Source: a virus. Taken from it: 64,000 nt of DNA. A model generated the notes under the pieces. That model was given only the letters and a program-made list of their open reading frames with translations, made no database searches and was not told the DNA's origin. Position numbers and translations under genes: made by a program. Positions 41,221 to 64,000 of this stretch are shown one piece after another. Within the stretch, counting starts at the first letter, position 1. Every line of letters begins with the position of its first letter. The DNA is taken from IMG/VR virus record IMGVR_UViG_3300026097_000013, positions 1 to 64,000 of that record. The stretch is one strand, 5' to 3'.

Positions 41221-41661
41221 ATGACTCAGATAATTTGCAGTGGTGCATTATTCTATACCCTTAATACAAATAGATTTTTATTCCTACATAGAGCTCAAGG
41301 AAAACGAGCAAATATGTGGGGATTAGTTGGCGGTACAAACGAAGGTGCTGAAACTCCATTTGAAGGACTTACTAGAGAAATTTCCGAAGAAATAGGATTT
41401 GTTCCTGAAATCAAAAAGACTCTTCCCTTAGAAAGTTTTATATCTCCAGATGATAGATTTCACTTTCATACATACCTGTGTATAGTTGAAGAAGAATTTA
41501 TTCCCACTTTAAATAACGAACACGACGGTTATGCATGGTGTAGTTTTACTAAATGGCCAAAGCCGTTGCATCACGGATTACGTAATACTCTTCAAAGTAA
41601 AATTAATATTAAAAAACTAGAAACCGTTTTTAAAACTATTAATTTACTTGACTCGAATTAA
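41221..41661 (+). CDS. NUDIX hydrolase
   Basis: Nudix box G-TNEGA-E-TPFEGLT-REISEEIG; start moved to MTQII. Confidence 0.88.
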   Translation: MTQIICSGALFYTLNTNRFLFLHRAQGKRANMWGLVGGTNEGAETPFEGLTREISEEIGFVPEIKKTLPLESFISPDDRFHFHTYLCIVEEEFIPTLNNEHDGYAWCSFTKWPKPLHHGLRNTLQSKINIKKLETVFKTINLLDSN

Positions 41662-41682
41662 TAAAGGTATTATAATAGTACT
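41648..41682 (+). promoter_or_regulatory. Sigma70-type promoter, leaderless geometry (hldE operon)
   Basis: TTGACT-17 bp-TATAAT-6 nt-ATG. Confidence 0.85.
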
Positions 41683-42945
41683 ATGATTAAAGTCTACGGA
41701 GACATAATGTTAGATCGTTGGATACAAGGATCTATTCAAAGGATTAGCCCCGAAGCACCAGTTCCTGTATTGCACGAAGAAGAAGTAGGGCATAACGCAG
41801 GCGGTGCAGCTAATCTTGCACTTAACATTAAAAATTTAGGCAGCAGTGTAGAATTATATGGTGCTTGTTCAGATGACCAAGAAGGTAAAACACTTGTAAG
41901 TTTGCTAGACGTTGATAAAGTACATCTAGACATGAGCCATTCTGTTACAACTACTAAGACTAGACTAGTAGATAATAGCGGACAACACGTATGTCGCTGG
42001 GATCGAGAAGCATATTACGACAAAACTGATTTGTTAGAGCAGTGTGCAGACGATTTACAAAAAGATGATATACTTTGCATAAGTGATTACGCAAAGGGCG
42101 TTGTGCGCAGTTCTACAGTTGCAAGATTAAGAAAATATTGCGATACTATTCTAGTTGATCCAAAACAGGAACCTAACTTTTACAAAGGGGCATTTGTATT
42201 CAAACCTAATATAAAATATTGGGCTGACTATTTTGGCAAATTAAACCTAGAAGATATTTCTAGAATAATGAAAGAATATAAATGGGAATGGGTTGTATTA
42301 ACATGTGGCGCTGCTGGCATGTATGTAGTTAACAAAGACGGTAAGTATCGTCATTATCAGGAACCAGTAAGAGAAGTTGCAGATGTAACTGGAGCAGGAG
42401 ATACCGTTCTAGCAGTTATTGCACATTGCTTGTTCCAAGGTATGGATGTATATCGAGCATCAGAGTTTGCATGTTATGCAGGTGCTAGAATGGTTGAACG
42501 CAGAGGCGTTGGTTTAGTAAGCGTAGACGATCTAGTTAAAGGTGTTGTATTTACAAACGGCGTGTTTGATATATTACATACAGGTCATTTTAAACTACTA
42601 CAAGCAGCACGAGCTAAGGGATCTAAATTAGTAGTAGGAATTAACACTGATGCTAGTGTTAAACGTCTAAAGGGCGATGAAAGACCTATTAACACTCTAA
42701 AAAAACGCATTAGTCAACTTGAAATATTACCTTGGGTAGATGAAGTTATTCCGTTCGAAGAAGATACTCCGTTAGAACTTATCAAAGGCATTAGTCCAGA
42801 CTTAATTGTCAAAGGCGGCGATTATAATGTCGAAGAAGTTGTAGGACACGATTATGCCCCAGTATATATCGTTCCCACTGAAGAAGGCTATTCAACGTCA
42901 GAAATTATAGAGAAAACAAATGAAAATACTAGTAACAGGACATAA
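41683..42945 (+). CDS. hldE: Bifunctional heptose-7-P kinase / heptose-1-P adenylyltransferase
   Basis: GDIMLD..RISPEAPVPV..GGAAN, DVTGAGDT; C-domain FTNGVFDILHTGH, KRLKGDERP. Confidence 0.93.
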   Translation: MIKVYGDIMLDRWIQGSIQRISPEAPVPVLHEEEVGHNAGGAANLALNIKNLGSSVELYGACSDDQEGKTLVSLLDVDKVHLDMSHSVTTTKTRLVDNSGQHVCRWDREAYYDKTDLLEQCADDLQKDDILCISDYAKGVVRSSTVARLRKYCDTILVDPKQEPNFYKGAFVFKPNIKYWADYFGKLNLEDISRIMKEYKWEWVVLTCGAAGMYVVNKDGKYRHYQEPVREVADVTGAGDTVLAVIAHCLFQGMDVYRASEFACYAGARMVERRGVGLVSVDDLVKGVVFTNGVFDILHTGHFKLLQAARAKGSKLVVGINTDASVKRLKGDERPINTLKKRISQLEILPWVDEVIPFEEDTPLELIKGISPDLIVKGGDYNVEEVVGHDYAPVYIVPTEEGYSTSEIIEKTNENTSNRT

Positions 42946-43744
42946 AGGATTTATAGGTTCAAATATTGCATTATATTTGCAATCACAAGGACATGAAGTA
43001 GAAGGTTGGGAATGGGCACCAGGCATTATTCCTAGTACAGAAGACTACGACTGGTGCATACACACTGGTGCAATTAGCTCAACTACATATACAGATGTAA
43101 ATCAAATACTAGAACAAAACTTTGAGTTTACCGTGAGGTTAGCACAAGTTTGCGAAAACTTTGGCACTAATCTGCAATATGCATCTAGTGCAAGTGTATA
43201 CGGTCCTACTGAACATTTTACAGAAGATAAAGATTTATTACCGCAATCACCTTATGCATGGTCAAAGTATCTGTTTGATAGGTTTATAAATCAGTTTCAA
43301 GACGAATTTGAAATTATTATTCAAGGATTTAGATATTTTAATGTATACGGTCCGGGCGAAGAACACAAAGGCGATCAAGCATCACCGTATACTAAGTTTA
43401 CACGCCAAGCACTAGATAATGGCGTTGTAAAACTATTCGAAAATTCAGACCAATACAAGCGAGACTTTGTCTGTGTAGAAGATTTGTGTCGTCTTCACGA
43501 AAAAATGTTTGATGTTAACACTAGTGGTATTTTTAATGCTGGCACAGGCACTGCTACTAGTTTTGATACCGTAGGGCGTGCAATTGCTAAGAAATACAAT
43601 GCAGACATAGAATACATTCCTATGCCAGATACACTAAAAGGTCAGTATCAAGAATACACTTGTGCTAATTTAGACAAACTAAATTCAGTAGTAGATATGT
43701 CGTGGACATCAATAGAGGATTATATAAATGCAAGAACTAACTAG
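42920..43744 (+). CDS. hldD: ADP-L-glycero-D-manno-heptose 6-epimerase
   Basis: TGHKGFIGS, ASSASVYG, YAWSK, RYFNVYG..HKGDQAS, YQEYTCA. Confidence 0.9.
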   Translation: MKILVTGHKGFIGSNIALYLQSQGHEVEGWEWAPGIIPSTEDYDWCIHTGAISSTTYTDVNQILEQNFEFTVRLAQVCENFGTNLQYASSASVYGPTEHFTEDKDLLPQSPYAWSKYLFDRFINQFQDEFEIIIQGFRYFNVYGPGEEHKGDQASPYTKFTRQALDNGVVKLFENSDQYKRDFVCVEDLCRLHEKMFDVNTSGIFNAGTGTATSFDTVGRAIAKKYNADIEYIPMPDTLKGQYQEYTCANLDKLNSVVDMSWTSIEDYINARTN

Positions 43745-44123
43745 GCTAGAAGGTGTTGTTCCAAAAGGATGGGGATACGAATTAATTTGGGCAACTAATG
43801 ACAAATACTGCGGTAAAATTATGTTTTTCGAAAAGGAAGGTGCAATGTTTTCAATGCATTTCCACAAAGAAAAGGACGAAACTTGGTTTGTAAATACCGG
43901 TAAATTTAAAGTTCAGTGGATTGATACAAGTACTGCTGCACTTTATGAAAAAGAACTTAAAGAAGGCGATGTTTGGCACAATCCGCCATTGCAGCCGCAT
44001 CGATTAATTTGTTTACAAGCTGAATCAAGTATTACTGAAGTAAGTACTGCTGATAGTGTCGAAGACAATTACAGAGTTGCTCCAGGAGATAGTCAAAGAC
44101 AAGATGTAAACAAAAATGTCTAG
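43728..44123 (+). CDS. Cupin (sugar isomerase-like)
   Basis: PKGWGYE, SMHFH..KDETW, PHRL, EVST. Confidence 0.78.
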   Translation: MQELTRLEGVVPKGWGYELIWATNDKYCGKIMFFEKEGAMFSMHFHKEKDETWFVNTGKFKVQWIDTSTAALYEKELKEGDVWHNPPLQPHRLICLQAESSITEVSTADSVEDNYRVAPGDSQRQDVNKNV

Positions 44124-44775
44124 TGTTTATCAATGGGGAGATCCTGTAAATATTCAAAGTACCCATTATGAGCCTCAACAAGATCATATGCAAGATCCAG
44201 AGTATATTGCTCCTAAATGTGTAATTGGCCTAGATAGAGACGGAGTTATAAATGTTGATCGCGGACAATATACTTACTCTATAAATGATTTTATTCCTAT
44301 TGTAAATAGCTTAGAAGCTATTGCTAAATTGCGCAGGCTTGGACATAAAATAGCCATTATAACTAATCAAGGCGGTATTGAAAAAGGATTATTCACAGAA
44401 CAAGATGTTGAAATTTTACATCAGCATATGCTCGATCTTCTAGGCAATGCAGGTTGTCCTAGTATTGATGCAATCTATTACAGCGCCAGTAGCAGAAAAA
44501 ATGACGAATGGGCAAAGCCAAATGTCGGAATGTTTAAACGCTGTGAAAAAGAATTTCCTCATATAAAATTTTCAAAAGGATTTTATGTAGGTGATAAAAT
44601 AACCGATCTTAAAGCAGCACACAAGATAGGTGCAAAGCCTGTTCTTGTACGTACGGGTTACGGTGTCGAAACTGAAAAAGAATTAAAAAAGTTTACCTAC
44701 CGTGACATAAGAAAAAAGACCATTATATTCAATGATCTTAATTCTTTTGCAGAGTATATCGAAGCGCAAAGTTAA
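44116..44775 (+). CDS. gmhB: D,D-heptose 1,7-bisphosphate phosphatase
   Basis: LDRDGVIN, ITNQGG, KPNVGM, VGDKITD. Confidence 0.9.
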   Translation: MSSVYQWGDPVNIQSTHYEPQQDHMQDPEYIAPKCVIGLDRDGVINVDRGQYTYSINDFIPIVNSLEAIAKLRRLGHKIAIITNQGGIEKGLFTEQDVEILHQHMLDLLGNAGCPSIDAIYYSASSRKNDEWAKPNVGMFKRCEKEFPHIKFSKGFYVGDKITDLKAAHKIGAKPVLVRTGYGVETEKELKKFTYRDIRKKTIIFNDLNSFAEYIEAQS

Positions 44776-50852: not shown

Positions 50853-51743
50853 TTATAATCCAAATGCTACTGCTAATGCAACCGCGGTACGATCTACATA
50901 TTGTTTATTTGCTACACTACTATTTATAGTAGGGTCATTACTAACTGTTGCAGAAGTAAATGCTGCTGTTGTAGGTGTAACGGCGCCTATCGTAGTGTTA
51001 TTTATAGTTGTATTTTCTATTGGAAGATCAGATCCTGTAGAACTTATAGTACCTAATTTATTTCCATCTATTTTTAGTACAATTTGATTAGTAGCTTCTA
51101 ATTCTAAATTTGTAGGTGAACTAATATTAGTTATGCCAATACCGTCGATATTAAGAGATCCTGCAACATATAAATCACCTTCAATTCCTACACCGCCTGC
51201 TACTGTAAGAGCACCGGAAGTAGAGCTTGTTGATGCAGTTGTTGAGTTGATATCAAGAGTACTAAACACTCCTACAGGATCAACTACATTTATAATGCCA
51301 TATATCGTTCCAGTATCATTACCATAATATAAAATATCAGGAGCAGATATTGGAGTTGAAAAATATAATCTTCCGCTATTTTTTCCTTGGGCATCTACTC
51401 CTGTTGTTGCGTCAGAATGTCTTAGCCCAACATTGTATAAGGTTAACGTATCGCCGACACTACTAAAAATACTAAATGTAAAATTAGTAAGATCTAAGTC
51501 AATTGTAGTTGAAGAATTTCTAGTAAATGTAATACTAGGATTGTTAGTTGCATTATTAATTAATCTAAAATTATTATCAACTTCTTCAAAGCTAAAATCA
51601 GCAGCAACGTCAACGTCTTCAACAACGTCTTGTACTTCAAGTGTAATCGATCTAGCTGTAATATTTCCTACAGAATCTACAGTAAAACTAGGACTTTCAA
51701 ATCCATATTTTGATCTTAAAGGTGCGTTTACAATCGTTGACAT
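50853..51743 (-). CDS. Short tail-fibre-like connector protein
   Basis: GALTVAGGVGIEGDLYVAG fibre repeat, VANKQYVD, C-terminal ALAVAFG. Confidence 0.7.
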   Translation of the reverse strand: MSTIVNAPLRSKYGFESPSFTVDSVGNITARSITLEVQDVVEDVDVAADFSFEEVDNNFRLINNATNNPSITFTRNSSTTIDLDLTNFTFSIFSSVGDTLTLYNVGLRHSDATTGVDAQGKNSGRLYFSTPISAPDILYYGNDTGTIYGIINVVDPVGVFSTLDINSTTASTSSTSGALTVAGGVGIEGDLYVAGSLNIDGIGITNISSPTNLELEATNQIVLKIDGNKLGTISSTGSDLPIENTTINNTTIGAVTPTTAAFTSATVSNDPTINSSVANKQYVDRTAVALAVAFGL

Positions 51744-51781: not shown

Positions 51782-52198
51782 TTATCGAGAAAGTGGAGTC
51801 AATGTATGAAAGTATTGAGCAGTAAAGATAACCTTAGTTCCATTATTTTGTCCTGCAGGTGATGATATTGCCGGATTTAGTATGACATCAACATAACTAT
51901 TGTTAACTACAGGCTCAATAGTAATTAATTCACGTAGTGTATGATTTCTAGCATACACTACAACACTTGCTCGATCGTCAGTTGCTGTTATTAATGCTTT
52001 AATTATTTCTTTATTATTAGCATCAAGATCTGCAGATATAGTATATTCTACTGACGAAAATTCTCCCACGTGCCATCGATCAAGTGTTGTGTTTTCATAT
52101 ACTTGCTTCCAGGGACCTTTATGACTAGTCCCTGAATTATTTTTAAAAAGTAATGTATTCTTTAATCCGTCTGTTAAATATTTTTGTAAGTTTTGCAT
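51782..52198 (-). CDS. Hypothetical virion protein
   Basis: 138-aa ORF with a late promoter and SD. Confidence 0.65.
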   Translation of the reverse strand: MQNLQKYLTDGLKNTLLFKNNSGTSHKGPWKQVYENTTLDRWHVGEFSSVEYTISADLDANNKEIIKALITATDDRASVVVYARNHTLRELITIEPVVNNSYVDVILNPAISSPAGQNNGTKVIFTAQYFHTLTPLSR

Positions 52199-52223: not shown

Positions 52224-54065
52224 TCAGTTCTTTACCGTAATTAGCTTTCCGTATTCAGGAAGATACAAATACTCGATTTTACTATGCGTTAATGTACGCA
52301 ATGCATCGTCAAGTGTTTCTACAAGAGGTTCACCGCCTAAGTTAAAGCTTGTGTTAAAGATAATTGGAACTCCGGTGCGCTCTTTAAATTCTTTAATAAT
52401 TCTGTAATATAGAGGATTGTCCTTTTCGTTTACTGTTTGAATTCTGCATGTACCGTCAACATGTATAATACTAGGAATTTTTTCAGCAATGCCTGGTTGA
52501 CAGTTTACAGCATACATCATGTGCGGACTATCTTCCATGCCACGCAAGTCGAACCATTCGTGTGCATCCTCAGCAAGTATTGATCCAGCAAACGGTCGGA
52601 AGTATTCACGACGTTTAATTTCGTTTACAAAGTCCTTGCCATCTTCGAATGTCGGATCAAACATTAAGCTACGATTACCTAATGCACGTGGTCCTGCTTC
52701 CGAGCGTCCTTGAAAACATGCTACAATATTTTTACTTGTCATTAGGTCAACAACATCTTTGTCTGTAGCATTTCTGATTTCTGCATTATAGTTTTCAACA
52801 ATTGAATTAATTTCATCGGATGTATATGTGTATTCAAATCCTAAATAAATTTCTCTCCCGTTTAGTTTATCAGGTATTTCAGTTATGGAATGAAATCCAA
52901 AAAGTGCTACACCAATAGCTGTGCCGCCATCGTTTGATATAGGTTCGACATAAAAATCAATTCCTTCTTCGTTTAAGCGATTTAAGAAATAATAATTAGC
53001 AACGCAGTTAAGTGCATACCCTCCGGATAATACTACTTTTTTCTTTCCAGACATTTCTACAGCTTTAAGTATAAGATTTAGAACTTGCTCTTGTGTTTCA
53101 GTTTGAACTGCGTATGCAAGATCTCTACGATTTTGTTCTAGTGTGACATCATCAAAGTTGTTTAGTTCGGTATTCAATTCGTCAAATAACTGCGTATTTA
53201 CAAAGGCTCCTCGAGGATAATAAGGAACAATAACATTTGGATCAGATAATTCATAGTCTCCAACTTTTTTAAATAGTGAAGGAATTTTATCGTTAGGCTT
53301 GCCGTATGGGAATAGTCCCATAGTTTTTCCTGCTTCAATTTCTTGAAATCCGCAATACTTTGTAACTGCTTCGTATGTTTTGGTAATACCTGCATTTCTA
53401 GATAATATAGCATGGAATGTATTATCTATTTCACCATACAAAAATTCAGCTTCTTTTTCTTTATCGATAATTGTTAATGTAGTATCTTTTGTTGCAGAAT
53501 GTTTGTATAAATGATTAAATGTTGCAGGGTAATTACAATCTAAAATTGATTCAATTTCCCATGTTGATACTACATCAGTATCATTTGGATTAAATTTTGG
53601 ATCTATACAAATCTCTAAAGGTATTTCAGAACCACAACCGTCTACTACTAGTGCTACAGCTTCGTCAAACCCAGATCGATAAAAGGCACAGGCTGCATGT
53701 ATCTTGTGGTGCTGATGACTAAGATCATACACCTGAGGATGATTATGAGGATCTGCATGTTGGTCAATTAATCCTAATTTTCGAGCTAACCCAATATACA
53801 TATTATCGCCACTAAAATCAATAGTGCCAGATGTATGCATTCCTTGAGTATGAACAATAAACATATAATCAACTTTATCTGTATACTCTTTTACTTTTAC
53901 CATTGCAGCAAATGGACTGCCGTCGTATTTTTTTCTGCTAAGGCGCTCTTCTTCAATTGCAAATACAATTTTACCATTTTTTAATAAACATACACCTGAA
54001 TTGTGTCCTCGAGAGATGCCTAATACCCAAAGATCTTTTTTTATTTCATTCATATTATAGTCCAC
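52224..54065 (-). CDS. O-carbamoyltransferase (NodU/CmcH/TobZ family), full length
   Basis: GHNSGVC, EEERLSRKK, HHKIHAA, AGKTMGL, DGGTAIG, GPRALGNRS, HVDGTCRIQTV, NTSFN. Confidence 0.92.
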   Translation of the reverse strand: MDYNMNEIKKDLWVLGISRGHNSGVCLLKNGKIVFAIEEERLSRKKYDGSPFAAMVKVKEYTDKVDYMFIVHTQGMHTSGTIDFSGDNMYIGLARKLGLIDQHADPHNHPQVYDLSHQHHKIHAACAFYRSGFDEAVALVVDGCGSEIPLEICIDPKFNPNDTDVVSTWEIESILDCNYPATFNHLYKHSATKDTTLTIIDKEKEAEFLYGEIDNTFHAILSRNAGITKTYEAVTKYCGFQEIEAGKTMGLFPYGKPNDKIPSLFKKVGDYELSDPNVIVPYYPRGAFVNTQLFDELNTELNNFDDVTLEQNRRDLAYAVQTETQEQVLNLILKAVEMSGKKKVVLSGGYALNCVANYYFLNRLNEEGIDFYVEPISNDGGTAIGVALFGFHSITEIPDKLNGREIYLGFEYTYTSDEINSIVENYNAEIRNATDKDVVDLMTSKNIVACFQGRSEAGPRALGNRSLMFDPTFEDGKDFVNEIKRREYFRPFAGSILAEDAHEWFDLRGMEDSPHMMYAVNCQPGIAEKIPSIIHVDGTCRIQTVNEKDNPLYYRIIKEFKERTGVPIIFNTSFNLGGEPLVETLDDALRTLTHSKIEYLYLPEYGKLITVKN

Positions 54066-55011
54066 TTAAAATTTTACCTGCTATTTGTTTAATTTGATCG
54101 TCAGTTAAATTCATTGCTGACTCATTTTTTCTATCTGCACACTCGTCTAAAGTGATACGTATAGGGCTGTACTCTTTATTATTTTTATTAAAATCAAAAA
54201 TATTAAAATATTTATTGTTAGGATAAGATACATTTTCAGCAAATGTTGACCCTAGCACCACATAAGATTTTTTATTAAACGAATGTGCGATATGCTGTCC
54301 TATCGAATCACATCCTATAAATGCATCTGCGGCATTTATCATTCCAAACCATTTCCTCAAATTTACGTTTTCAATAAAAAATGTTTCTTGTTTACATCCG
54401 TATGCGCTAAAATCTACATTAAATTCATTCATTAATAATATAGAACATCTGTGTTCAATCTTTTTTATTAAATTTGCAGCTGATGCAATAGTAAAAGACC
54501 TACCAGTCGAATCAATCGGCCCTGCTGATGTTTCTACATTATTTAATGTTATACCTTTGCCAAACGGTTGAAAAATCATCAGAGGCTTGTTATGTTTATT
54601 CCTCATATCGTTGGCCATATTTAATGCTGTATGCTTTTCTTCGTTATTTAAATATATAGACGGCGCTGACAGATTATCATCTAAAGTTCCATTAATTTCG
54701 ATATCAAATGCTTGTGCAATACTGCATTTTTGATTATAGTATTCCCATACATAATAAGGCTCCGGCGCTACTATGTTTCTATCTTTTAGTTTATCTTTAA
54801 ATAAATGAGGTAAGTTTGACGGATATGATCTAGCATGCAATGACGGATGTCCTGAAAATGCTTCATATGCAAATTCTGAAAATATTACAAAATCATCGTC
54901 TGGATTATTTTCTAGATATTTTTCTAATGCCGGAATGGCGCACACAACTCTTCCAATGCCGCCATTAATATAGAATGCAGTATTACGTTCTTTGTTGTTT
55001 ATTTTTTTCAT
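54055..55011 (-). CDS. GT9-like (heptosyltransferase-type) glycosyltransferase
   Basis: GGIGRVVCAIPAL; AADAFIGCDSIGQHIAHSFNKKSYVVLGST matches the GT9 pattern IGxDSGxxHxAxA..P.v.lfG.T. Confidence 0.6.
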   Translation of the reverse strand: MKKINNKERNTAFYINGGIGRVVCAIPALEKYLENNPDDDFVIFSEFAYEAFSGHPSLHARSYPSNLPHLFKDKLKDRNIVAPEPYYVWEYYNQKCSIAQAFDIEINGTLDDNLSAPSIYLNNEEKHTALNMANDMRNKHNKPLMIFQPFGKGITLNNVETSAGPIDSTGRSFTIASAANLIKKIEHRCSILLMNEFNVDFSAYGCKQETFFIENVNLRKWFGMINAADAFIGCDSIGQHIAHSFNKKSYVVLGSTFAENVSYPNNKYFNIFDFNKNNKEYSPIRITLDECADRKNESAMNLTDDQIKQIAGKILSGL

Positions 55012-55646
55012 AAGTTTAACTCATTTAATGTTATTGTTGTTCCGAGGGTTCCTTTTACAAAAACATTAAAAGATAAACTTATTCTGTTTTTGTTTGAATT
55101 ATTAGGACTTACTTCGTGAAACAACGTTGAAGGAAAGAAAATAATATCATTATTTTTTACAGGAACAGTCCATATATTTGAATTAGTTACATTATATGTA
55201 GAAACATCGATTTGTAGTGTGGGATTATTTGTAATAGTATCATTGTTATTAGAAATAAATGTTATACTATCTTCGGGTGTTGTATCTATATAATAAACTC
55301 CACTTATTAAAGAATTACTATGATTGTGTCTATGATGACTAGAACCAGGCGGATTAAAATTTAACCAAGATTGTGTAAGATAAAATTCATGTTTAGGATC
55401 TATAAATAATACGTTGTTAATATATTCATTAAGACCAGACATAATTCTATCACGTATTAAACTGTAAGAATCTAAATTCAACACATTAGTATTAGTTGAT
55501 GAAAGGTTTCCTCCAACATTTTCACGAGTTTTTAATTGTTCGGTTGTTGTGTCATGTACTTCGGTTATATCTGAATATTTGTTATATATAAAAACCGGAG
55601 TACTAAAAAGTAATAATGTATTATCTAAAGATTGATTTTGATTCAT
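55008..55646 (-). CDS. 2OG-Fe(II) oxygenase (TIGR02466-like)
   Basis: HHRHNHSNSLISGVYY, FFPSTLFHEV, RISLSFN. Confidence 0.82.
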   Translation of the reverse strand: MNQNQSLDNTLLLFSTPVFIYNKYSDITEVHDTTTEQLKTRENVGGNLSSTNTNVLNLDSYSLIRDRIMSGLNEYINNVLFIDPKHEFYLTQSWLNFNPPGSSHHRHNHSNSLISGVYYIDTTPEDSITFISNNNDTITNNPTLQIDVSTYNVTNSNIWTVPVKNNDIIFFPSTLFHEVSPNNSNKNRISLSFNVFVKGTLGTTITLNELNL

Positions 55647-55656
55647 TTTTTATCCT

Positions 55657-56325
55657 TTAGTTGCAATCTAGAGATATTCTAATATTTCCAGAAACGCTTA
55701 TTCTGTAATCATCCGAAGTATAAAATGGATATACACAATGATTCAACGTAGCAGGAAACATTAAAATAGTTCCTTCCCATGTCTTATCAACCGGAACCGG
55801 TGTAGTTTGTATTCTGCCTAGTATATCATTGTAAATAAAAGTAAATTTTGAAGTATAAGCGCCCGATGTGTCTGTATTATCTGATTCGTGCAAGATATCA
55901 GAGTTAAGAGGAAAATAAGTTTCTTCATCTTTTAATTCATAAGGTATTTTAATCCAAATAACAAAGCTTAATACACCCGAATGATGATGTATAGGGTTAA
56001 ATTCATATTTTTTTTGTTTATTGACCCACATAGAATCAACAATTAAATTATATTTTTTAGATTTTGAAACTTCTTCAAATGTATCAAGAAATCCTGGATT
56101 ATTAATCTGCCAAGTATCTGCCATTGCTAATAGAAATTCAGACATATTTTCCTTAATATGATTTAAAGAATATTCTTCTTGCATATGTCCCAAAAGCTTA
56201 TGATTATATTTCTCTCCTGTGTCACCCATAGTATCTATAACAGATTTTAAATTTTTAAAAATATCAAACGGAAGTTTAGACTCTAATACACCGAGATTAT
56301 TAAGTGCTTTTAATGATAATGTCAT
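55657..56325 (-). CDS. 2OG-Fe(II) oxygenase (H-x-H type)
   Basis: EFNPIHHHSGVLSFVIW, MFPATLNHCVYP, RISVSGN. Confidence 0.8.
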   Translation of the reverse strand: MTLSLKALNNLGVLESKLPFDIFKNLKSVIDTMGDTGEKYNHKLLGHMQEEYSLNHIKENMSEFLLAMADTWQINNPGFLDTFEEVSKSKKYNLIVDSMWVNKQKKYEFNPIHHHSGVLSFVIWIKIPYELKDEETYFPLNSDILHESDNTDTSGAYTSKFTFIYNDILGRIQTTPVPVDKTWEGTILMFPATLNHCVYPFYTSDDYRISVSGNIRISLDCN

Positions 56326-56330
56326 GTTTT

Positions 56331-57908
56331 CTATGTATCCTTATCATTGTATATATACCGAGATAACCAATCACAAGCACTAAGCTGAGTGCTTGCAGCA
56401 TTTTTCCATTGATTTACTTTGTTATATCTATCGTATAAAAAATTTTCACAAAGATCGCGCATACTTGTCTGCATACCCAATTCTTGCTTTACAATGTCAA
56501 TTTCATTGTATACATTATAATTCATACCGTTAGCTATACATACAATACCTGCACGTCCAGTATGACTAAGTGTAAGTGTTTTCTTTACATATAGATCATT
56601 AAATCCGCTAGTACTAGTGCGTAAATTTGAATCGTAAACTCTTTCTCTATTTTTATTCCAGTAATCTGAATCACTTCTTATAGACAAAGCGTAATGCAAT
56701 GCAACAAATTCTGCAAAATTCTGATAAAAATTTCTTATGTGTGCGTTATACACATCTCGATCAAATTGATTAACTACTGGTCGATCTACATGACGACAAA
56801 ATTCTAACAAAAATTCATGAACACTTAATAATCCATTACTTTCTAGTGGCTCAATGAATGCAGCAGCCAACCCAATGCCTAATACATTTTTAACCCATAT
56901 ACGTTCATAAATACCTGTTTTAAAATTAATGTGCTTAAAATTAAGATCATCTGTAACTCTATTAGGATTGTGCAATGTCATTTTATCCGAATTAAGATGA
57001 TTTTTAAATTCTTGCAGAGCATCTTCGTCTGATATAAATTCATCTGAATATACGTATCCTGTACCTATTCTAGACCAAAGCGGAATATTCCAAACCCACC
57101 CGTTACTTAGTGCAGTACAATTTGTATATACTTCTAGTTCTTTTTCTTTATCAGTATACGGTATTTGTACAGCCCATGCCTTGTTATTTGGTAAAATATC
57201 TCTATAAGATACAAATGGCTCTTCTAGTGCTTTACCTAAAAGTAAACTTTCAAATCCAGTGCAATCTACATAAAGATCTGCTGTTAATTTTGTTCCGTCT
57301 TCTAAAATAATTTTAGATATACCGTTATCGTCTGTAGGAGCGTCAACAACTGTTCCTACTACATGTTTAACTCCACGAGGTATACAATAGCGATCTTTAA
57401 GATATTTTCCGAATAATAACGAGTCAAAATGAAAAGCTGTATGATAATCAAATCTAAAATCATCAAAACTACCGTCTTCATTAGTTGATATTTTATTTTC
57501 GTTTACTAATGCCATTACAGGCCAAAAGTTTTCTGCAAAGTCGCTAGAATGAGTTTCAGGATAGTAAGCTTTTTTTAATTGCCAATGATTATAATTAATA
57601 TCTTCAGTTTCTATAGGATCACCAAACGGATAATGGAATCCTCCGTAGTCTTTATCATAAAAGTCAGTAAATTTGATACTAAACTTATAACTACCATTTG
57701 TATGTTTTAGAAAATCTTTGTCATCTATTCCGAGGTACGCTGTCCAGTCACGAATAAATCCTAAGGTACTTTCACCCACACCAATTTTTGGTATATCATC
57801 ACTTTCAACTAATGTAATAGATTTATCGGGAAATTTTCTAATCAGTGTTGCAGCAGCCATCCATCCAGCTGAGCCGCCGCCTACTATTAATATACTATTA
57901 AATGCCAT
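56331..57908 (-). CDS. Flavin-dependent halogenase (tryptophan halogenase family)
   Basis: GGGSAGW, GVGEST, Lys in SYKFSI, WVWNIP, FIEPLESNG. Confidence 0.88.
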   Translation of the reverse strand: MAFNSILIVGGGSAGWMAAATLIRKFPDKSITLVESDDIPKIGVGESTLGFIRDWTAYLGIDDKDFLKHTNGSYKFSIKFTDFYDKDYGGFHYPFGDPIETEDINYNHWQLKKAYYPETHSSDFAENFWPVMALVNENKISTNEDGSFDDFRFDYHTAFHFDSLLFGKYLKDRYCIPRGVKHVVGTVVDAPTDDNGISKIILEDGTKLTADLYVDCTGFESLLLGKALEEPFVSYRDILPNNKAWAVQIPYTDKEKELEVYTNCTALSNGWVWNIPLWSRIGTGYVYSDEFISDEDALQEFKNHLNSDKMTLHNPNRVTDDLNFKHINFKTGIYERIWVKNVLGIGLAAAFIEPLESNGLLSVHEFLLEFCRHVDRPVVNQFDRDVYNAHIRNFYQNFAEFVALHYALSIRSDSDYWNKNRERVYDSNLRTSTSGFNDLYVKKTLTLSHTGRAGIVCIANGMNYNVYNEIDIVKQELGMQTSMRDLCENFLYDRYNKVNQWKNAASTQLSACDWLSRYIYNDKDT

Positions 57909-57915
57909 AAAAAAA

Positions 57916-57964
57916 ATACCTCCTATAATGTATTTAATTATAACATCATAGGAAGCATTGTCAA
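57916..57964 (-). promoter_or_regulatory. Overlapping sigma70 (extended -10) and late promoters with strong SD
   Basis: TTGACA-16-TATAAT preceded by TG-n, immediately followed by TAAATA, then AGGAGG. Confidence 0.72.
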
Positions 57965-57977
57965 TGTGATTTATATA

Positions 57978-58502
57978 TTACTCTTCAGGATCTGGATCTG
58001 GGCCTGGATCTGGAATCACAACTCCGGGAATTAACGGCCATTCAATCTCAGATTCATGTGATATTGTATCCCAATCAATTGTGTCGGGCAAGTCTCTTAG
58101 TTGCTGTCTATACGTTGCCCATTCTGCTTTTTCTGCATCACTAAGTGGTGCATCCGGCAATTGTGTCCAATCCGAAGCTGGTAATAAATTTAGACGGGTA
58201 CGTTCCATAAATCTAAATCGCTTTTCCAGTATATCAATTGATTTTTCAATCCACTCTTGAGTAAAAGTTCCGTCTTCATTTTTTATAATATCGCCTGGCG
58301 CTATGTCTACATCAGTATCGCCGTTGACATAGTCTCTAATTGAATCATATACCGGAGCATAACCTTTAGCACGTACTTCTTCTTCAGTAAAGTCCCATGT
58401 TTCTTTCATTATATAATGTATATTTTCGTTAGAAATATATGTAGAGTCAACCATATCTCCATTTTCATCTATTCTTATATAGTTTACATTTTGTAAATTC
58501 AT
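57978..58502 (-). CDS. Tail fibre assembly chaperone-like protein
   Basis: R..LL..SDWTQLPDAPL....W..YRQQLRDLP. Confidence 0.8.
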   Translation of the reverse strand: MNLQNVNYIRIDENGDMVDSTYISNENIHYIMKETWDFTEEEVRAKGYAPVYDSIRDYVNGDTDVDIAPGDIIKNEDGTFTQEWIEKSIDILEKRFRFMERTRLNLLPASDWTQLPDAPLSDAEKAEWATYRQQLRDLPDTIDWDTISHESEIEWPLIPGVVIPDPGPDPDPEE

Positions 58503-58522
58503 TGTGCAGTTCCTTAATCTTA

Positions 58523-60046
58523 TTATAAGTTATGTGTGTTACAGCAAGGCCACGCTCTATTTGCGCCCCAAACAATTCTAACAACACCCGGCCCGCCCCA
58601 GCCGCCGCCGTGTGACGTGCCGCCGCCTCCGGCGCCGCCGCCGAACTTTCCGCCGCAATTATAACCGTTTCCTCGTCCATTCGAATACGGCTCACCTGGA
58701 TTACCACAGCAACCGCCTGATCCGCCTTGGCCTGCTCCGCCGCTTGTGCCGTGACCTGTTCGTCCATGGCCGCATCTGCCTTCACTGCTGCTACTACCAT
58801 AACAGCACATGCCACATGCGCCAGTGCCGCCACCGCCGCCAGTACCGTAAGTTGAACTGTGATAAGAAGTTGCGCTGCCCCCTCCGCCACCGCAACCACG
58901 ATATCCCGGAGTATTAGAGTTAGCAGGTGATCGGCCACAATAGCCAGCTCCGCCGCCGCCTCCGCCAGCAGTACCCGGATAAGCAACCATTCCGTAACTA
59001 CCGCAGCATGTTCCGCTGCCGCCATTTACATCACTGAAGCTGTAACATCCGCCGTAACATCCACAACATCCGCCGCAGGCTATCATACCCGGCCAGCATG
59101 AATATCCACCAAGGTTTTGGCTGTTAGACCAGCATGCTCCACGTCCGACGCGGATACAATAAGATTGACCTGGTGTAACTGGAATATTATTAGCCCATAC
59201 AGAGCCACCGCCGTGCCCGCCGCAGCCTGCCCAGTCGTAACGGCCGCTGCCGCCAGCGCCGATTGCTAGTACATTAACACTTGTAACTCCATCTGGGGCT
59301 ACCCATGTATAATTACATGTGCCGCCAGCTTGGCCATATACACCTTCATATTGTGCTTGTCCTTTAACGGCTTCAAAATAGAATTGTTTGCTAAATGCTG
59401 TAGTTCTATACGAACCTTCAGGCATTGATGTATTACGTACACCTAGTGTAAAGTTATAATTATTAGTTGTTTCGTCACTAGATTTTCCTGGAAAAGTCAT
59501 TAGTCCGTTGTTATCAATAGTTACATTAGACGGTAAGTTGCCTCTGTTAGTAATTGCCCATTCTGTAGCTGTACCGCTATTACTGAATTGAAAAGTTTCC
59601 GCAGCAGTAAGTGTTACATTATTGTTATTAGTAGTAATACTAGGATAATCGTTTGTTGTGCTAACAAATATAGTTATATCAGCTTCGTATACAACATCAT
59701 ATTTTGAATCAGTAATATTTATCGTTAATACTGACAATGGATCCATGCTAGCAGCCGATCCTGATAGTGTTCCACTAGATGATAGAGTTAGTCCGTATTG
59801 TGCGCCATCTCGCCACGCAAAGGTATATTCTGAATCACCAAAAGCACCTGTTACGCTAAGTGTAACATTTAAACTTTCGTTTGCATTTATATAATCTGGA
59901 AGAGGATCTCTATCAAGAGATGCGCCGCCAGCTAAAACAAATCCTGTTCCGTTACTTGTTAAAATTAGTCCAGTATTTTCAAAGTCTGCATCCTCGATTG
60001 CTAGACCACTACCTCTGTTTTTTGTTAATCCTATAAATCTTCCCAT
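58523..60046 (-). CDS. Fibre-like virion protein with Ig-like repeats and a Gly/Cys-rich C-terminal domain
   Basis: LTLSSSGTLSG and VTIDNNG (putative Ig); WVAPDGVTSVNVLAIGAGG...GVVRIVWG glycine-rich domain with 23 Cys. Confidence 0.75.
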   Translation of the reverse strand: MGRFIGLTKNRGSGLAIEDADFENTGLILTSNGTGFVLAGGASLDRDPLPDYINANESLNVTLSVTGAFGDSEYTFAWRDGAQYGLTLSSSGTLSGSAASMDPLSVLTINITDSKYDVVYEADITIFVSTTNDYPSITTNNNNVTLTAAETFQFSNSGTATEWAITNRGNLPSNVTIDNNGLMTFPGKSSDETTNNYNFTLGVRNTSMPEGSYRTTAFSKQFYFEAVKGQAQYEGVYGQAGGTCNYTWVAPDGVTSVNVLAIGAGGSGRYDWAGCGGHGGGSVWANNIPVTPGQSYCIRVGRGACWSNSQNLGGYSCWPGMIACGGCCGCYGGCYSFSDVNGGSGTCCGSYGMVAYPGTAGGGGGGAGYCGRSPANSNTPGYRGCGGGGGSATSYHSSTYGTGGGGGTGACGMCCYGSSSSEGRCGHGRTGHGTSGGAGQGGSGGCCGNPGEPYSNGRGNGYNCGGKFGGGAGGGGTSHGGGWGGPGVVRIVWGANRAWPCCNTHNL

Positions 60047-60070
60047 TATAATTTCCTTTTATACATGTAT

Positions 60071-60388
60071 TTATGCTGATGTTTCGATACCAAAAACTAC
60101 AGCACTAATACTTGCTTCTGATGATAATGCAACTATTTTTTGACCTGCTGCTAACACTAGACCTGTACGTTCTAGTACGTTTTTAGCAAGTAACCCTGTT
60201 TCAAATTCTATGTATTCTCCGTTAGTAGGAGTATCTGCATCTGCAATTGCTAAACTAATATTAGAAGCATCAGCACCTCTATTACATATCGATATTGTTG
60301 CAACGGCATAAGTGTCTGCTGGACATTCGTATACTGTTGTAAGTGTTGCTGCGCTTAAATCGCTTGCTGCTAATCTTCCTGTAGCCAT
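60071..60388 (-). CDS. Small fibre-associated virion protein
   Basis: TTVYECP...ICNRG...YIEFET...LERTGLVL...VFGIE; GGAG SD. Confidence 0.65.
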   Translation of the reverse strand: MATGRLAASDLSAATLTTVYECPADTYAVATISICNRGADASNISLAIADADTPTNGEYIEFETGLLAKNVLERTGLVLAAGQKIVALSSEASISAVVFGIETSA

Positions 60389-60403: not shown

Positions 60404-63400
60404 TTATGATGATAAAAAGTAATTCAATGCAACTGGTGCACCTTTGATTCCGCCAGTAAAATTAACTTTCTGTGTTATATTTATCTGTGCATTAGTTGTA
60501 GTTGTAATTTCCTGTCCAGAAACTTTAATTACGCCTGCTGTTAAACTATTAACATTTAGTTCGCCTTGGCCTCCGCCAATTTGGCTAGCAATATAAGTTT
60601 TAATTGCCTTTTGTGTTGGAACAATATTATCACTATTAGCAGTAAACGTACCGTCTACACTAAATTCAGTAATAACAGCACCTGTGCCGCCTAGTGCAAC
60701 TGCACCAAGTTGTAGCTCATTCAATCCAGTAATGTTAAACGCATCAGCATTAAGTGTTGCTACACCAGTTGATTGTTCAACGTTGAACAACCCACCAACT
60801 CTAAAGTTACCGTCTTGGTCAGTAGTGGTGTAGAACACTCTACCGCCGCCGCCAGTAAATGTTTCTTTTGTTGGATCGATTGGATTAACTGGAGTGTTAG
60901 GGTAGTTAGTATCTTCAAAATTTCCAGTACCGATATCCAAGAAGTCGTGTCCTGTTAGACGAACTTGTGAATATCTAATTCTAAATTCAATAGGATCGTC
61001 GTGATCTGGTGCATGAGTTATAGTTATTTCTGGACTTACTTGTAATTGTGCAGTATAAGGACCAGTTCCTTCAACATTTCTAACATTTACAAGTTTATAG
61101 TAATCTCCAGGAATTCCTTGGAATGTTAGGTTGGAGCCAGCTTGTGGTATTTCTGTTAATCCACTTACATTAATAAGCGTACCGGGCTGATATCTATCAG
61201 CATATCCGTCACCAACAACGTCAGCTGCTGCTGTTGCCATTCCACTACCACGATTTGTCCATGTAGGCTGTGTTAATACACCGTCGCCGATTCTAACTTC
61301 ATGCGGTGCTTCTACTGTATTATTTGGATCAGTAATAGTCATTGTAGGAGCACTTGTGTATCCTTGTCCAGGATTCCATATACGAATTTCAGTAATCTTA
61401 CCGTCTTCGACTCTTGCGCGAGCTGCTGTAGTATCAGCATATAATCCGCTAGCAGGTGCAGTAAACGATAATCTAGGTTCAATCGAATATGATGTTGTTT
61501 CGTTTAGCGTAGTCTCAATAGCAACACCAGTTACATGATCCCAGCCTGCTGTATCATCACTCATTTTCTTAATAGTAGCAAGCTTTGTACCGCTATTGTA
61601 AGTATCAATATATCCGTATTGACCTGCGCCTACTCCGGATGTAATATATATTGCCATGCCTACATATGCTGCATCAAGTCTAGTATCGGTGTTTGATAAA
61701 GTTATTTGTGTAGCATTACCCGATTGTGCTACATTTTCACTAGTTATATAATCAAGGCCGCCAAAGTTTTCAGCTGGATCTAATAATCTAACTTCAAATA
61801 CGCCGCCATTAACTGTTTGCACTTCATCAATGAGAGCGCCGAAGCCTTCGCCTGATGGTGTAATAGTAGTGGCACCAGCTGTGTAATTTACTCCTGCATT
61901 TCCGTATTCAAGTGTAAGAATATTATTTCCGTCGGTCATAACATTTGTAACAAACGCTTCAAGTGCGTTGTTATTAACGTTACCAGTGATCGGAGTTTCA
62001 GTAATATCAACACCTTCAGCAACTGTACCAAATGCGCCGTATGATGAGTTACCGTTTGTAGCGCGAATCTTACCACCGTTCTCTGCCAAGTAACCGATGT
62101 GTCCATAGTATGAGAACACAGATACAAGTTCTGTTCTGCCTAGGTTAGTACACCATACGCCAATACCATCACTGATAATCTGTGTAAAGTCGTTAGCAAC
62201 AATTGAGTCGTTACCGCCATCATGTAGATCGCCGTCAATCTTACAACCGACACAACCTGTACCAAATGTAGTTACGTTTTGTACGTACGGTGATTTGTTA
62301 ATAATCCATGCGTCGAGGTGTTCTGGTCCCCAACCTGGATCAAGACTTACAAATGCACCTGCTGTTGGACGTTTTGTGCCGTAAACATTTGCAGTAGTTA
62401 GTGACCCAGATAGATCTGCTACAGTACAATTGCGCAAACCTGTTCCGTTACGCATATAAAACATATCTTCTGTTGTACTTCCGCCGACAGCATTTACATA
62501 ATAACGTGCATATAATAATGACTTATAGTTTCCTGTATAAATTAAATCATGCTTAATAGCGTCAATATATCTGTGGATATCTCTTTCGCACTTTGCAACA
62601 TCATATTCATAAGAAGGATATGTATCTGCAATATACGCTGTAACTTCTGCTACTAAGAATGCTCTGTTTGCTTCAAGTGTTTCAACAGCATATGTATAGT
62701 CAGTAGTAGTATTTGGAGTATTTGATCCTGCGCTTACAGGTACAGTCGAATCGCCAGTTGCACCGTTAACACCGTAGTCAATATAATCATAAATTTGTTG
62801 CCATAGACCGGCAGCATCAACACCTGCGCTCGCGCTGCCTGCTGGTGACGTTGTTACTGGATCTAATGAATTTCCTGTAGTCTTTGTAACTACACCGTGT
62901 GTAATAACGTTATTTGTAATTGCTTGTAGTCTACTAATCGCATCAAGAGTGTAAGGTGTATCACTACTATCAACTAGTACACCAGCAGGTGTAATGCGTG
63001 TTGATCGTAATTCGTCGCCGATAACTGCTGTGTTTTCAGGAACAACAATCGGCAGTACTTCTGAAAATTGTCCAGTTTTAACAAATATACTATTTTGAGG
63101 TTTACGTTCAGCTGGAACTTCTGTAGTATTACCAGCAGTAATTGCATCAGTAACAATATTAACTAGTGTTTCTGCAGTCGCTTGTGCATCAGCTTCTTCT
63201 ACAAAGTCAGTATTAATATATTGGTTTAATGAGCCTCTAACTGTTGCAGGAGCAAGGTTTGATAAAATTGCATCTGTTAATGTTTTAATATAATTTAGTC
63301 CTGCTGCTGTTTCTGTTTGATTGCCTGCTGTATATGTATCTCCAGCACTATTAAAGTATGTCAATGATTGTACTCTAGAACGTGCATTGCCGCCGTGTGA

Positions 63401-64000
63401 CAAGTCCCATATAATTGCATCAACAACAGCACCTGCATCTTCTCTAAATGCTGCTTTATCGTATACTCCTACAAGTGCAGGGTATGTTGCATCAATATAT
63501 TCAACAACTTCATCTTGAATAAAGCTTCTGTTTCTCTCTAAAAGATGTTTAGCATTATAACGTATTGCACCTGCTTGAATTTGTTCTGTTGCATAACGAA
63601 TAGTTTTCCAAGGTCGATCTAGTGTAACACCATACAACGGTGCTGGCTCATCAACGCCAGAAATGCTTTCGACATAAAATACATTATTAATACGACCAAG
63701 ATATGCCCACTCTGGAGCATCACCGCTATTATTAACTCTTAATGCTTGTCCTGGCGTGCCTATTGGCAATCTTGTTGCGCCTGCGCCGCCGTAGTAGACA
63801 ATGTCGCCCGAAGTAGTTAAGTTACCAGATTCTGCGCCCGCAACTAATAAATTCCAATTAGTGCCAGTAACATCTTGATCTGGTCTGTTCTGTTCTATAA
63901 CTTCATCTGATGTATGTGCTAATACACAAATATATGAGTTTACACCATGTTGTATACTATCTCCTGCATCATAAAATGTTGCATCAGTCCATGTTCCCTT
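60404..64000 (-). CDS. Large tail fibre/spike protein, 5'-truncated by the window end
   Basis: Frame stays open to base 64000 (KGTWTDATFYDAGD..SYICVLAHTS, CBM5/12-like); beta-helix-like segment SPYVQNVTTFG...ANDFTQII...ELVSVFSYY. Confidence 0.8.
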   Translation of the reverse strand, partial: KGTWTDATFYDAGDSIQHGVNSYICVLAHTSDEVIEQNRPDQDVTGTNWNLLVAGAESGNLTTSGDIVYYGGAGATRLPIGTPGQALRVNNSGDAPEWAYLGRINNVFYVESISGVDEPAPLYGVTLDRPWKTIRYATEQIQAGAIRYNAKHLLERNRSFIQDEVVEYIDATYPALVGVYDKAAFREDAGAVVDAIIWDLSHGGNARSRVQSLTYFNSAGDTYTAGNQTETAAGLNYIKTLTDAILSNLAPATVRGSLNQYINTDFVEEADAQATAETLVNIVTDAITAGNTTEVPAERKPQNSIFVKTGQFSEVLPIVVPENTAVIGDELRSTRITPAGVLVDSSDTPYTLDAISRLQAITNNVITHGVVTKTTGNSLDPVTTSPAGSASAGVDAAGLWQQIYDYIDYGVNGATGDSTVPVSAGSNTPNTTTDYTYAVETLEANRAFLVAEVTAYIADTYPSYEYDVAKCERDIHRYIDAIKHDLIYTGNYKSLLYARYYVNAVGGSTTEDMFYMRNGTGLRNCTVADLSGSLTTANVYGTKRPTAGAFVSLDPGWGPEHLDAWIINKSPYVQNVTTFGTGCVGCKIDGDLHDGGNDSIVANDFTQIISDGIGVWCTNLGRTELVSVFSYYGHIGYLAENGGKIRATNGNSSYGAFGTVAEGVDITETPITGNVNNNALEAFVTNVMTDGNNILTLEYGNAGVNYTAGATTITPSGEGFGALIDEVQTVNGGVFEVRLLDPAENFGGLDYITSENVAQSGNATQITLSNTDTRLDAAYVGMAIYITSGVGAGQYGYIDTYNSGTKLATIKKMSDDTAGWDHVTGVAIETTLNETTSYSIEPRLSFTAPASGLYADTTAARARVEDGKITEIRIWNPGQGYTSAPTMTITDPNNTVEAPHEVRIGDGVLTQPTWTNRGSGMATAAADVVGDGYADRYQPGTLINVSGLTEIPQAGSNLTFQGIPGDYYKLVNVRNVEGTGPYTAQLQVSPEITITHAPDHDDPIEFRIRYSQVRLTGHDFLDIGTGNFEDTNYPNTPVNPIDPTKETFTGGGGRVFYTTTDQDGNFRVGGLFNVEQSTGVATLNADAFNITGLNELQLGAVALGGTGAVITEFSVDGTFTANSDNIVPTQKAIKTYIASQIGGGQGELNVNSLTAGVIKVSGQEITTTTNAQINITQKVNFTGGIKGAPVALNYFLSS

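Follow-up and report, generated by a model that had tools for sequence, protein, structure and literature searches.

Why does a phage carry genes for a halogenase, two oxygenase-like proteins, a glycosyltransferase-like protein and a carbamoyltransferase in the midst of its tail-fibre genes, and on what do the encoded enzymes act? The question is raised by a seven-gene cassette (positions 52224-60046) in the IMG/VR virus record IMGVR_UViG_3300026097_000013, of which positions 1-64,000 were analyzed and are referred to here as the window; the contig itself is a 120 kb fragment with a CheckV completeness of 33%. Besides the five enzyme genes, the cassette encodes a 507-residue fibre-tip protein (FIB507) and a tail-fibre assembly chaperone. 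Two of the enzymes, the carbamoyltransferase and a protein resembling family 9 glycosyltransferases (GT9-like), are encoded together in nearly all related loci, next to Gly-rich and mostly Cys-rich tip proteins. We tentatively propose that this pair decorates the fibre tip with carbamoyl-heptose. ADP-heptose would be made by the products of the phage's own HldE-like, epimerase, cupin and HAD phosphatase genes, the heptose would be transferred by the GT9-fold enzyme and then O-carbamoylated by the NodU/TobZ-type enzyme, and the proposed acceptor is FIB507, whose Cys-rich Gly_rich_2 receptor-binding tip would be folded with the Tfa-type chaperone. The VirX1-like halogenase and two PF13759 oxygenases would be accessory tailoring enzymes tied to the FIB507 cartridge, and the five enzyme genes appear to form a sigma70-driven, early-type unit between fibre genes with late promoters.

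Conservation of the enzyme pair beside fibre-tip genes

The comparison was based on a first set of 82 loci, made up of 80 IMG/VR contigs fetched with the GT9-like family and the loci of phages S-SSM7 and Sf-FS3. The GT9-like and carbamoyltransferase genes occur together in 81 of them. The conserved gene order is g1582, g105, a variable cartridge, the GT9-like gene, an optional gene of ~300 codons, the carbamoyltransferase gene, g138, g296 and g2025. Gly-rich, mostly Cys-rich tip proteins and PF16778 chaperones are always part of the cartridge. Usually it encodes three paralogous proteins of ~245 residues with ~20% Gly and ~10% Cys (phrog_4205, weak PF21722 match); in the window it consists of FIB507, the chaperone, the halogenase and the oxygenases. 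An earlier sequence-only reading of this DNA had spoken of an exchangeable host-range or shielding module. The stretch between g105 and the GT9-like gene does act as an exchangeable cartridge; a role in host range or shielding is hypothetical.

In the annotated locus L019 the cartridge additionally holds two PF16778 chaperones and a CN-hydrolase. The CN-hydrolase (nitrilase-superfamily) gene lies immediately before the GT9-like gene (L019:9138-9959) and is absent from the window. Also absent is the ~300-residue gene that most relatives have between the GT9-like and carbamoyltransferase genes (L019:10938-11837), for which the protein-atlas clusters were all uncharacterised viral ones.

The trio of Gly/Cys tip, GT9-like and carbamoyltransferase genes persists where the flanks are altered or inverted, as in P-SSM2, S-SSM7, Sf-FS3 and loci of the L008 type, and its cultured carriers include S-SSM7, P-SSM2, S-CAM1/3 and Sf-FS3. 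Even among relatives just 40-48% identical the pair is kept with Gly/Cys tips. Relatives of the GT9-like protein number 2,133 in the protein collection and are mostly unnamed, a few being named heptosyltransferase or carrying a precomputed PF01075 match. When GTDB was scanned for the family's motif (one genome for each of 185,579 species), it was met only on phage contigs binned into metagenome-assembled genomes (MAGs), so we regard it as a phage family and not a recent host lipopolysaccharide (LPS) gene. With the exception of a few short contigs, these MAG-binned phage contigs show the same module. The MAGs holding contigs L090-L098 are labelled Chitinophagales, Methanobacteriota, Neomarinimicrobiota, Gammaproteobacteria and Flavobacterium, labels that likely reflect mis-binning and not hosts. 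N4-like Vibrio phages encode a distant homologue of the GT9-like protein, again between tail-fibre genes. In the N4-like podovirus vB_VspP_SBP1 (L085) this 244-residue protein (7998-8732) sits between the tail fibre gene and that of a 'tail family protein' with 4.4% Cys.

The halogenase and the oxygenases are variable extras of the pair module and travel with the FIB507 fibre type. Matches to the halogenase were obtained in 13 of the 82 loci, to the oxygenase-like protein OGb212 in 11 and to its companion OGa222 in 8. Ten loci encode a FIB507-type fibre or chaperone, and all ten have a halogenase (at least 50% identity) and at least one oxygenase; among the remaining loci only S-SSM7, L033 and L035 gave halogenase matches, which were weaker. 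On the carbamoyltransferase tree the FIB507-type loci fall into three groups, and unconstrained trees require 3 (FastTree) or 4 (IQ-TREE quick) changes. We nevertheless do not accept that fibre type and halogenase co-varied repeatedly and independently, as a single clade is not rejected by the approximately unbiased (AU) test (p 0.22). A survey of fibre and enzyme co-variation across phages had been suggested with the sequence-only reading; association is seen for the pair in 81 of 82 loci and for the extras with the FIB507 type, with the qualifications that the latter is possibly one event and that Cys-richness is dispensable (L097, below). In some relatives of the window's cartridge (L016, L017, L009 and L038) the GT9-like/carbamoyltransferase pair is surrounded by four or five paralogous halogenase genes and as many as four oxygenase genes.

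Cysteine content of the fibre tip

The last 270 residues of FIB507 contain 23 Cys, with five CC pairs, and its tip domain is 8.5% Cys. FIB507 itself has no PF21722 (Gly_rich_2) match at E <= 0.01, whereas homologues 67-74% identical to it carry this domain and also PF05345. In an AlphaFold (AF2) model residues ~40-235 are confidently predicted as beta domains that match immunoglobulin (Ig)/cadherin folds, residues 340-470 are poorly modelled, and Foldseek matched the Ig-like part only. A hidden Markov model of the stand-alone Gly/Cys family missed FIB507, and the two were linked by hhalign alone (probability 92%, E 7.5e-7), over the first 69 columns only. The PF16778 match of the chaperone lies over the family cut-off, and 20 nt separate its gene from the fibre gene.

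Relatives at least 60% identical to FIB507 have 8-11% Cys in the tip domain and those 40-58% identical have 5-7%, compared with 0-1.5% in ordinary Gly_rich_2 proteins; two such ordinary tips were examined (L101 and L102) and have no adjoining enzyme cassette. At least 8% Cys was counted in 142 of 158 Gly-rich open reading frames (ORFs). Every phage in which a Cys-rich (5-11%) Gly_rich_2 tip was seen carries the GT9-like gene, and Gly-rich tips that lie beside carbamoyltransferase, oxygenase or halogenase genes without a GT9-like gene are Cys-poor (S-TIM4, L100, Syn9 and Sf-CH11). Tip Cys-richness correlates with the GT9-like gene, yet not absolutely. Because in locus L097 both the GT9-like gene and that of the carbamoyltransferase go with Cys-poor tips, Cys-richness is not required for the enzyme association.

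The GT9-like protein

Neither Pfam nor NCBIfam gave a match to the GT9-like protein at E <= 0.01, PF01075 included, and a search of PDB sequences with the family profile returned nothing relevant. Its AF2 model (mean predicted local distance difference test score, pLDDT, 85; predicted template modelling score, pTM, 0.84) retrieved 3tov, 1psw (WaaF), 2gt1 (WaaC) and 6dfe as top Foldseek matches, with E values from 4e-10 to 1e-7. TibC (4rb4 and 4rap) came lower in the list, below the LPS enzymes, at E ~3e-7. Alignment of the family against WaaC and WaaF by hhalign gave E values of 0.0045 and 0.0024, respectively, at a probability of only 8-12%.

Across 20 aligned relatives 59 positions are invariant, among them G233-C-D-S-x-G-Q-H240 and G254-S-T256, both of which fall, by hhalign, on sugar-nucleotide motifs in the WaaC and WaaF of E. 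coli. The C-terminal motif of those enzymes, D-(S/T)-G..H..A followed by G-x-(T/S), is kept in the phage protein. Their N-terminal G-D motif is not: in an alignment made by eye, its Asp is replaced by an Arg (Arg21, G-R) that is invariant in the 20 relatives (WaaC ...SMGDVLHTLPAL; WaaF ...WVGDMM; window protein ...GIGRVVCAIPAL). This Asp is the proposed catalytic base of WaaC. Only two Cys, C24 and C234, are conserved in the family. As far as the model and the motifs go, the protein resembles GT9 in fold and donor site and fails one catalytic hallmark. The transferase named in the sequence-only reading therefore holds for the modelled GT9 fold and the sugar-nucleotide motif, but a family-level match is lacking and the Asp is an Arg.

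The carbamoyltransferase, halogenase and oxygenases

The carbamoyltransferase contains both Pfam halves, PF02543 (E 7e-27) and PF16861 (E 6e-59), corresponding to a Kae1-like N-terminal domain with its HxxxH...D metal site and a YrdC-like C-terminal domain. H119, H120, H123 and D142 are among 158 positions invariant in 64 relatives. Its solved relatives (7xb6, TobZ, NovN and GdmN) all carbamoylate hydroxyls of sugars or polyketides.

In the halogenase the motifs GGGSAG at residue 10 (GxGxxG), WVWNIP at 271 (WxWxIP) and FIEPLES are kept. Among relatives of known structure VirX1 is the nearest (6qgm, E 8e-99 over 416 residues), and K75 aligns with the catalytic Lys of the VirX1 'YK'. The two oxygenase-like proteins match the PF13759 family with E values of 3e-10 and 2e-22. 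The HxD/E motif was not found in this pair; instead, they share a conserved H-x-H-S and a distal His with the uncharacterised protein 3bvc. The solved structures nearest to OGb212 are 3bvc and 2rg4, both of uncharacterised proteins. The identities that had been given from sequence to the fibre, chaperone, halogenase and full-length carbamoyltransferase agree with these family matches, as does, at the level of the family, that of the two 2OG-Fe(II) oxygenases.

Layout, promoters and heptose genes

By ORF calling every gene within 44772-65152 is on the minus strand. In downstream order the genes are g1582, g105, FIB507, the chaperone, the halogenase, the two PF13759 proteins, the GT9-like protein, the carbamoyltransferase, g138, g296 and g2025 (Table 1). 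Intergenic gaps across the seven-gene cassette range from -11 to 69 nt, and genes of fibre or virion proteins flank it at either end. GC content is 32.1% in the enzyme block, against 37.2% for the contig, which places the block in the lowest 1.5% of the contig's 5.7-kb windows. The co-orientation and tight packing, the structural flanks (by their fibre and virion phrog matches) and the AT-rich enzyme block reported in the sequence-only reading were all confirmed.

Table 1. Features of the cassette, its flanks and the heptose gene set (window positions)
Feature	Position	Strand	Evidence and remarks
g1582, large tail-fibre protein	60404..64000, continues to contig position 65152	-	phrog_9851 tail fiber protein, E 5e-92; upstream flank kept in 71 loci
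g105, small fibre-associated protein	60071..60388	-	phrog_11338, phrog_693 tail fiber; directly precedes the variable cartridge in 60 loci
Late-type promoter motif CATAAATA	60068..60075	-	begins 29 nt ahead of the FIB507 start codon
FIB507, fibre-tip protein, 507 aa	58523..60046	-	phrog_4474; two Ig-like (He_PIG-type) domains and putative C-terminal Gly_rich_2 domain, 23 Cys
Tail-fibre assembly chaperone	57978..58502	-	PF16778, E 3.4e-15; phrog_4912, phrog_4697
Consensus sigma70-type promoter, TTGACA-16 nt (TG)-TATAAT	57937..57964	-	in the cassette's single sizeable gap (69 nt)
Flavin-dependent halogenase, VirX1-like	56331..57908	-	PF04820, E 1e-102
OGa222, 2-oxoglutarate (2OG)-Fe(II)-oxygenase-like	55657..56325	-	PF13759
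OGb212, 2OG-Fe(II)-oxygenase-like	55008..55646	-	PF13759/TIGR02466
GT9-fold glycosyltransferase-like protein, 318 aa	54055..55011	-	phrog_8954
NodU/TobZ-type O-carbamoyltransferase	52224..54065	-	PF02543 + PF16861; 11-nt overlap with GT9-like gene
g138, conserved downstream neighbour	51782..52198	-	own late motif; no family match
g296, conserved downstream neighbour	50853..51743	-	own late motif
g2025, giant virion/fibre protein, 2025 aa	44772..50849	-	phrog_5838 virion structural protein, E 9e-247; phrog_4527 short tail fiber
NUDIX gene and ADP-heptose supply set	41149..44775	+	Pfam matches; between gp15 and g2025
HldE-like kinase/adenylyltransferase	41683-42945	+	Pfam
HldD-like epimerase	42920-43744	+	Pfam
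Cupin	43728-44123	+	Pfam
GmhB-like HAD phosphatase	44116-44775	+	Pfam

The promoter in front of the halogenase gene is a 12/12 match to the sigma70 consensus and the sole one in 18 kb. It recurs unchanged before the halogenase gene in L003, the closest relative, and before the GT9-like gene in L018 and L020. Elsewhere in the window a second perfect site, TTGACA-17-TATAAT, is found at position 3214 (-). Across loci sigma70-like sites scoring at least 10/12 cluster ahead of enzyme genes. Two late boxes had been noted in the sequence-only reading: that at 60068-60073 is real, as part of CATAAATA, but the other (57931-57936) is only a TAAATA that abuts the -10 hexamer of the sigma70 promoter (57964-57937). 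The late motif GATAAATA lies 27 nt upstream of both g138 and g296. Exact copies of TATAAATA are not enriched within the window, with 6 found against 10 expected. Among the loci NATAAATA is located upstream of g105 in 32/55, g138 in 30/42 and g296 in 21/26, as against 1/78 for the carbamoyltransferase and 1/22 for the halogenase. Given the sigma70 promoter and the lack of a late motif, the enzyme block looks, from its sequence, like an early-type sigma70 unit placed between late fibre genes. Between the fibre gene and the enzyme block there is no convincing terminator, so late read-through would also be possible.

The heptose genes of the window have homologues in P-SSM2 (genes 309-313), located immediately after the P-SSM2 carbamoyltransferase gene; in S-SSM7 and Sf-FS3 the heptose genes likewise come straight after it.

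The 1111-residue tail sheath (window 33499-36834, -) is nearest to those of the jumbo myoviruses CBB, Atu_ph07, GAP32 and Munch and not to cyanophage sheaths, and no psbA gene was found on the contig. Judging from its genes, the uncultured source phage is probably a marine jumbo myovirus with many fibre genes, for which the name 'cyanophage' is unsuitable. Against cultured phages, megablast of the region gave a single 40-nt match and tblastn of FIB507 gave none. This match, at 97.5% identity, links OGa222 (window ~55706-55745) to a 2OG-Fe(II) oxygenase gene in Prochlorococcus phage P-SSM7.

Comparison with known systems

The nearest described counterparts are the cassettes of the cyanomyoviruses P-SSM2 (PSSM2_304-313), S-SSM7 (SSSM7_114-133) and Sf-FS3 (97-112), which have homologous GT9-like (38-42% identity) and carbamoyltransferase (44-58%) genes. 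As in the window, proteins rich in Gly (15-18%) and Cys (9-11%) follow the tail-fibre gene, and heptose adenylyltransferase, kinase, cupin and epimerase genes are homologous as well; a halogenase and 2OG oxygenases are encoded in S-SSM7, too. The arrangements differ, in that the cyanomyovirus heptose genes lie between the carbamoyltransferase gene and the neck genes, while those of the window are 7 kb off on the opposite strand, beyond g138, g296 and g2025. The tips differ too, being a single 507-residue Ig-plus-Gly_rich_2 protein in the window and two or three stand-alone paralogues of ~260-355 residues in the cyanomyoviruses, and the window phage resembles a jumbo myovirus, unlike these carriers.

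Cyanomyovirus gene catalogues list prnA, carbamoyltransferase, 2OG oxygenases and 'LPS genes' (PMC3037559, PMC1079782). The P-SSM2 homologues were published as 'LPS biosynthesis genes' with an effect on the cell surface, and these papers (PMC1079782, PMC3037559) see such genes as LPS genes or stuffer DNA and not in terms of fibre tailoring. The 'new system' of the sequence-only reading is, then, too strong: its classes of gene were known before, and cyanomyovirus catalogues already list the cassette, with no function attached, although none of the papers found describes the trio of Gly/Cys tip, GT9-like protein and carbamoyltransferase. What the window adds is the Ig-plus-Gly_rich_2 fibre variant, a VirX1-like halogenase with two oxygenases, a clear sigma70 promoter and the probable placement of the module in a jumbo phage.

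The chemistry has a parallel in the LPS inner core of Pseudomonas, where WaaC and WaaF (GT9) and a putative carbamoyltransferase, WapO (PA5005), are responsible for a heptose II carbamoylated at the 7-O position; transfer from ADP-heptose by GT9 enzymes is followed there by 7-O-carbamoylation through an enzyme of the same cluster (PMC8005017). The acceptor in Pseudomonas is Kdo2-lipid A, whereas in the phage the genes are set among those of the fibre. In addition, the GT9-like protein of the phage is too divergent for PF01075 and has the Arg in place of the WaaC/WaaF Asp.

The gene of TibC/AAH adjoins that of its adhesin (TibA/AIDA-I), which the enzyme heptosylates from ADP-heptose. The phage protein shares a GT9-like fold with TibC (4rb4, 4rap), yet an iron-finger of the TibC type is unlikely in a family in which only C24 and C234 are conserved. 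Fibres with a PF21722 tip followed by a PF16778 chaperone (Tfa-type systems) are present in many phages, and the window shares the Gly-rich C-terminal tip and the chaperone with them; it is the Cys content of the tip, in FIB507 and its closest relatives, that sets it apart from the ordinary kind. VirX1 of cyanophage Syn10 has a large open active site and was characterised on artificial substrates only, with no known natural substrate (PMC8407142). The window halogenase has its catalytic Lys, WxWxIP and FIEPLES, and in Syn9 genes of the VirX1 type also come after Gly-rich proteins behind the fibre gene.

On what do the enzymes act?

By analogy with known systems, heptose transfer followed by O-carbamoylation is the likeliest chemistry of the pair, and it is reasonable because the phage encodes its own ADP-heptose genes. 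From these genes, and from the adjacent ones in P-SSM2 and S-SSM7, we infer that ADP-heptose is the donor of the GT9-like enzyme. We likewise infer that the sugar is carbamoylated and, with least certainty, what the acceptor is. The fibre tip is favoured since the nesting of the pair by Gly-rich tips persists through rearrangements and across phage groups, and since the GT9-like family was found on phage contigs only in the GTDB scan; TibC/AAH provide a precedent. As an acceptor the tip is unproven; the pattern suggests, but does not prove, self-decoration of host-recognition fibres.

Several points weigh against this proposal. The missing Asp means that the chemistry of the GT9-like protein may differ from heptosyl transfer, and no GmhA gene is present on the 120-kb fragment, itself 33% complete. 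The enzyme block is led by a sigma70 promoter and does not have the late motif found on every neighbouring structural gene, so the two are not simply regulated together. That the genes stay adjacent could reflect inherited synteny, the halogenase and oxygenases may have come to co-vary with fibre type in one event on the sequences compared, and the enzyme sets of Syn9 (gp41-55) adjoin fibre genes in a region that resembles a general accessory-gene hot spot. Modification of a virion protein is, finally, a prediction from sequence.

The published view of the P-SSM2 homologues as LPS genes (PMC1079782, PMC3037559) speaks for the alternative that the heptose pathway, the GT9-like protein, the carbamoyltransferase and the other enzymes alter an envelope glycan of the host early in infection. 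Superinfection would be blocked, or progeny kept off debris, and the genes would lie beside the fibre genes as receptor and fibre co-evolve. We consider this a serious rival, somewhat less probable than decoration of the fibre. Chemically, the closest parallel is the pathway of an LPS core (PMC8005017), WaaC and WaaF are among the best fold matches, and the early-type sigma70 promoter without late motifs would fit a host-directed role. On the other hand, the GT9-like family was found on phage DNA only and never in a cellular LPS cluster in the GTDB scan, 59 of its positions are invariant in the 20 relatives aligned, and it is without the G-D motif Asp of WaaC and WaaF. The pair is moreover nested within the fibre module, not beside it, with Gly-rich tips always adjacent.

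If the fibre genes are no more than the surroundings, the block could be an unlinked accessory-gene island at a hot spot, whose enzymes act on free metabolites or make a small molecule, for instance an aromatic bearing halogen or hydroxyl groups or a derivative of heptose. No part of the contig is richer in AT than the block, which has a sigma70 promoter to itself; the halogenase and both oxygenases are patchy (13, 11 and 8 of 82 loci) and occur in cyanophages in other contexts, and a single origin of the fibre and halogenase combination was not rejected (AU p 0.22). Small molecules are also the substrates of the enzymes of known structure that come closest to the carbamoyltransferase (TobZ, NovN, GdmN) and to the halogenase. 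The GT9-like/carbamoyltransferase pair, however, is not patchy and is kept with Gly/Cys tips at 40-48% identity and through inversions, and no scaffold-building genes (non-ribosomal peptide synthetase, polyketide synthase or precursor peptide) are nearby, which makes such an island unlikely. Still less probable, in our estimation, is a Cys-directed form of fibre decoration, in which the GT9-fold enzyme, with its invariant Arg instead of the usual Asp base, S-glycosylates, or the carbamoyltransferase S-carbamoylates, the tip cysteines and the halogenase and oxygenases add further marks. It draws mainly on the observed restriction of Cys-rich Gly_rich_2 tips to phages with the GT9-like gene; L097 is a counter-example. 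If the 'RiPP-like' label of the sequence-only reading is taken to mean a ribosomally synthesized and post-translationally modified peptide (RiPP) system in the strict sense, with leader-guided enzymes maturing a ribosomal peptide, we attach next to no probability to it. Flavin halogenases that act on peptides and S-glycosyltransferases exist in RiPP pathways, an analogy and nothing further, but the ORFs of the 44-64 kb region include no short leader-core precursor, RiPP recognition element (RRE)-type domain, leader protease, cyclase or exporter, and the candidate substrate is a 507-residue structural protein with Ig-like domains. DNA modification was set aside, the genes being in a fibre module with no adjacent nucleotide-metabolism partner.

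Implications

If the fibre tip is indeed decorated, marine phages would tune host recognition or shield their adhesins by post-translational chemistry in addition to sequence change. Were the cysteines themselves the target, the receptor-binding surface would be swappable and chemically encoded. With more than 2,100 GT9-like relatives and at least 580 IMG/VR loci, the genes would be among the commoner accessory genes of the ocean virome. Carbamoyl-heptose decoration would also supply a role for what has gone down, over 20 years, as 'LPS genes' or auxiliary metabolic genes, and would provide a pointer to the natural substrate of viral halogenases of the VirX1 type.

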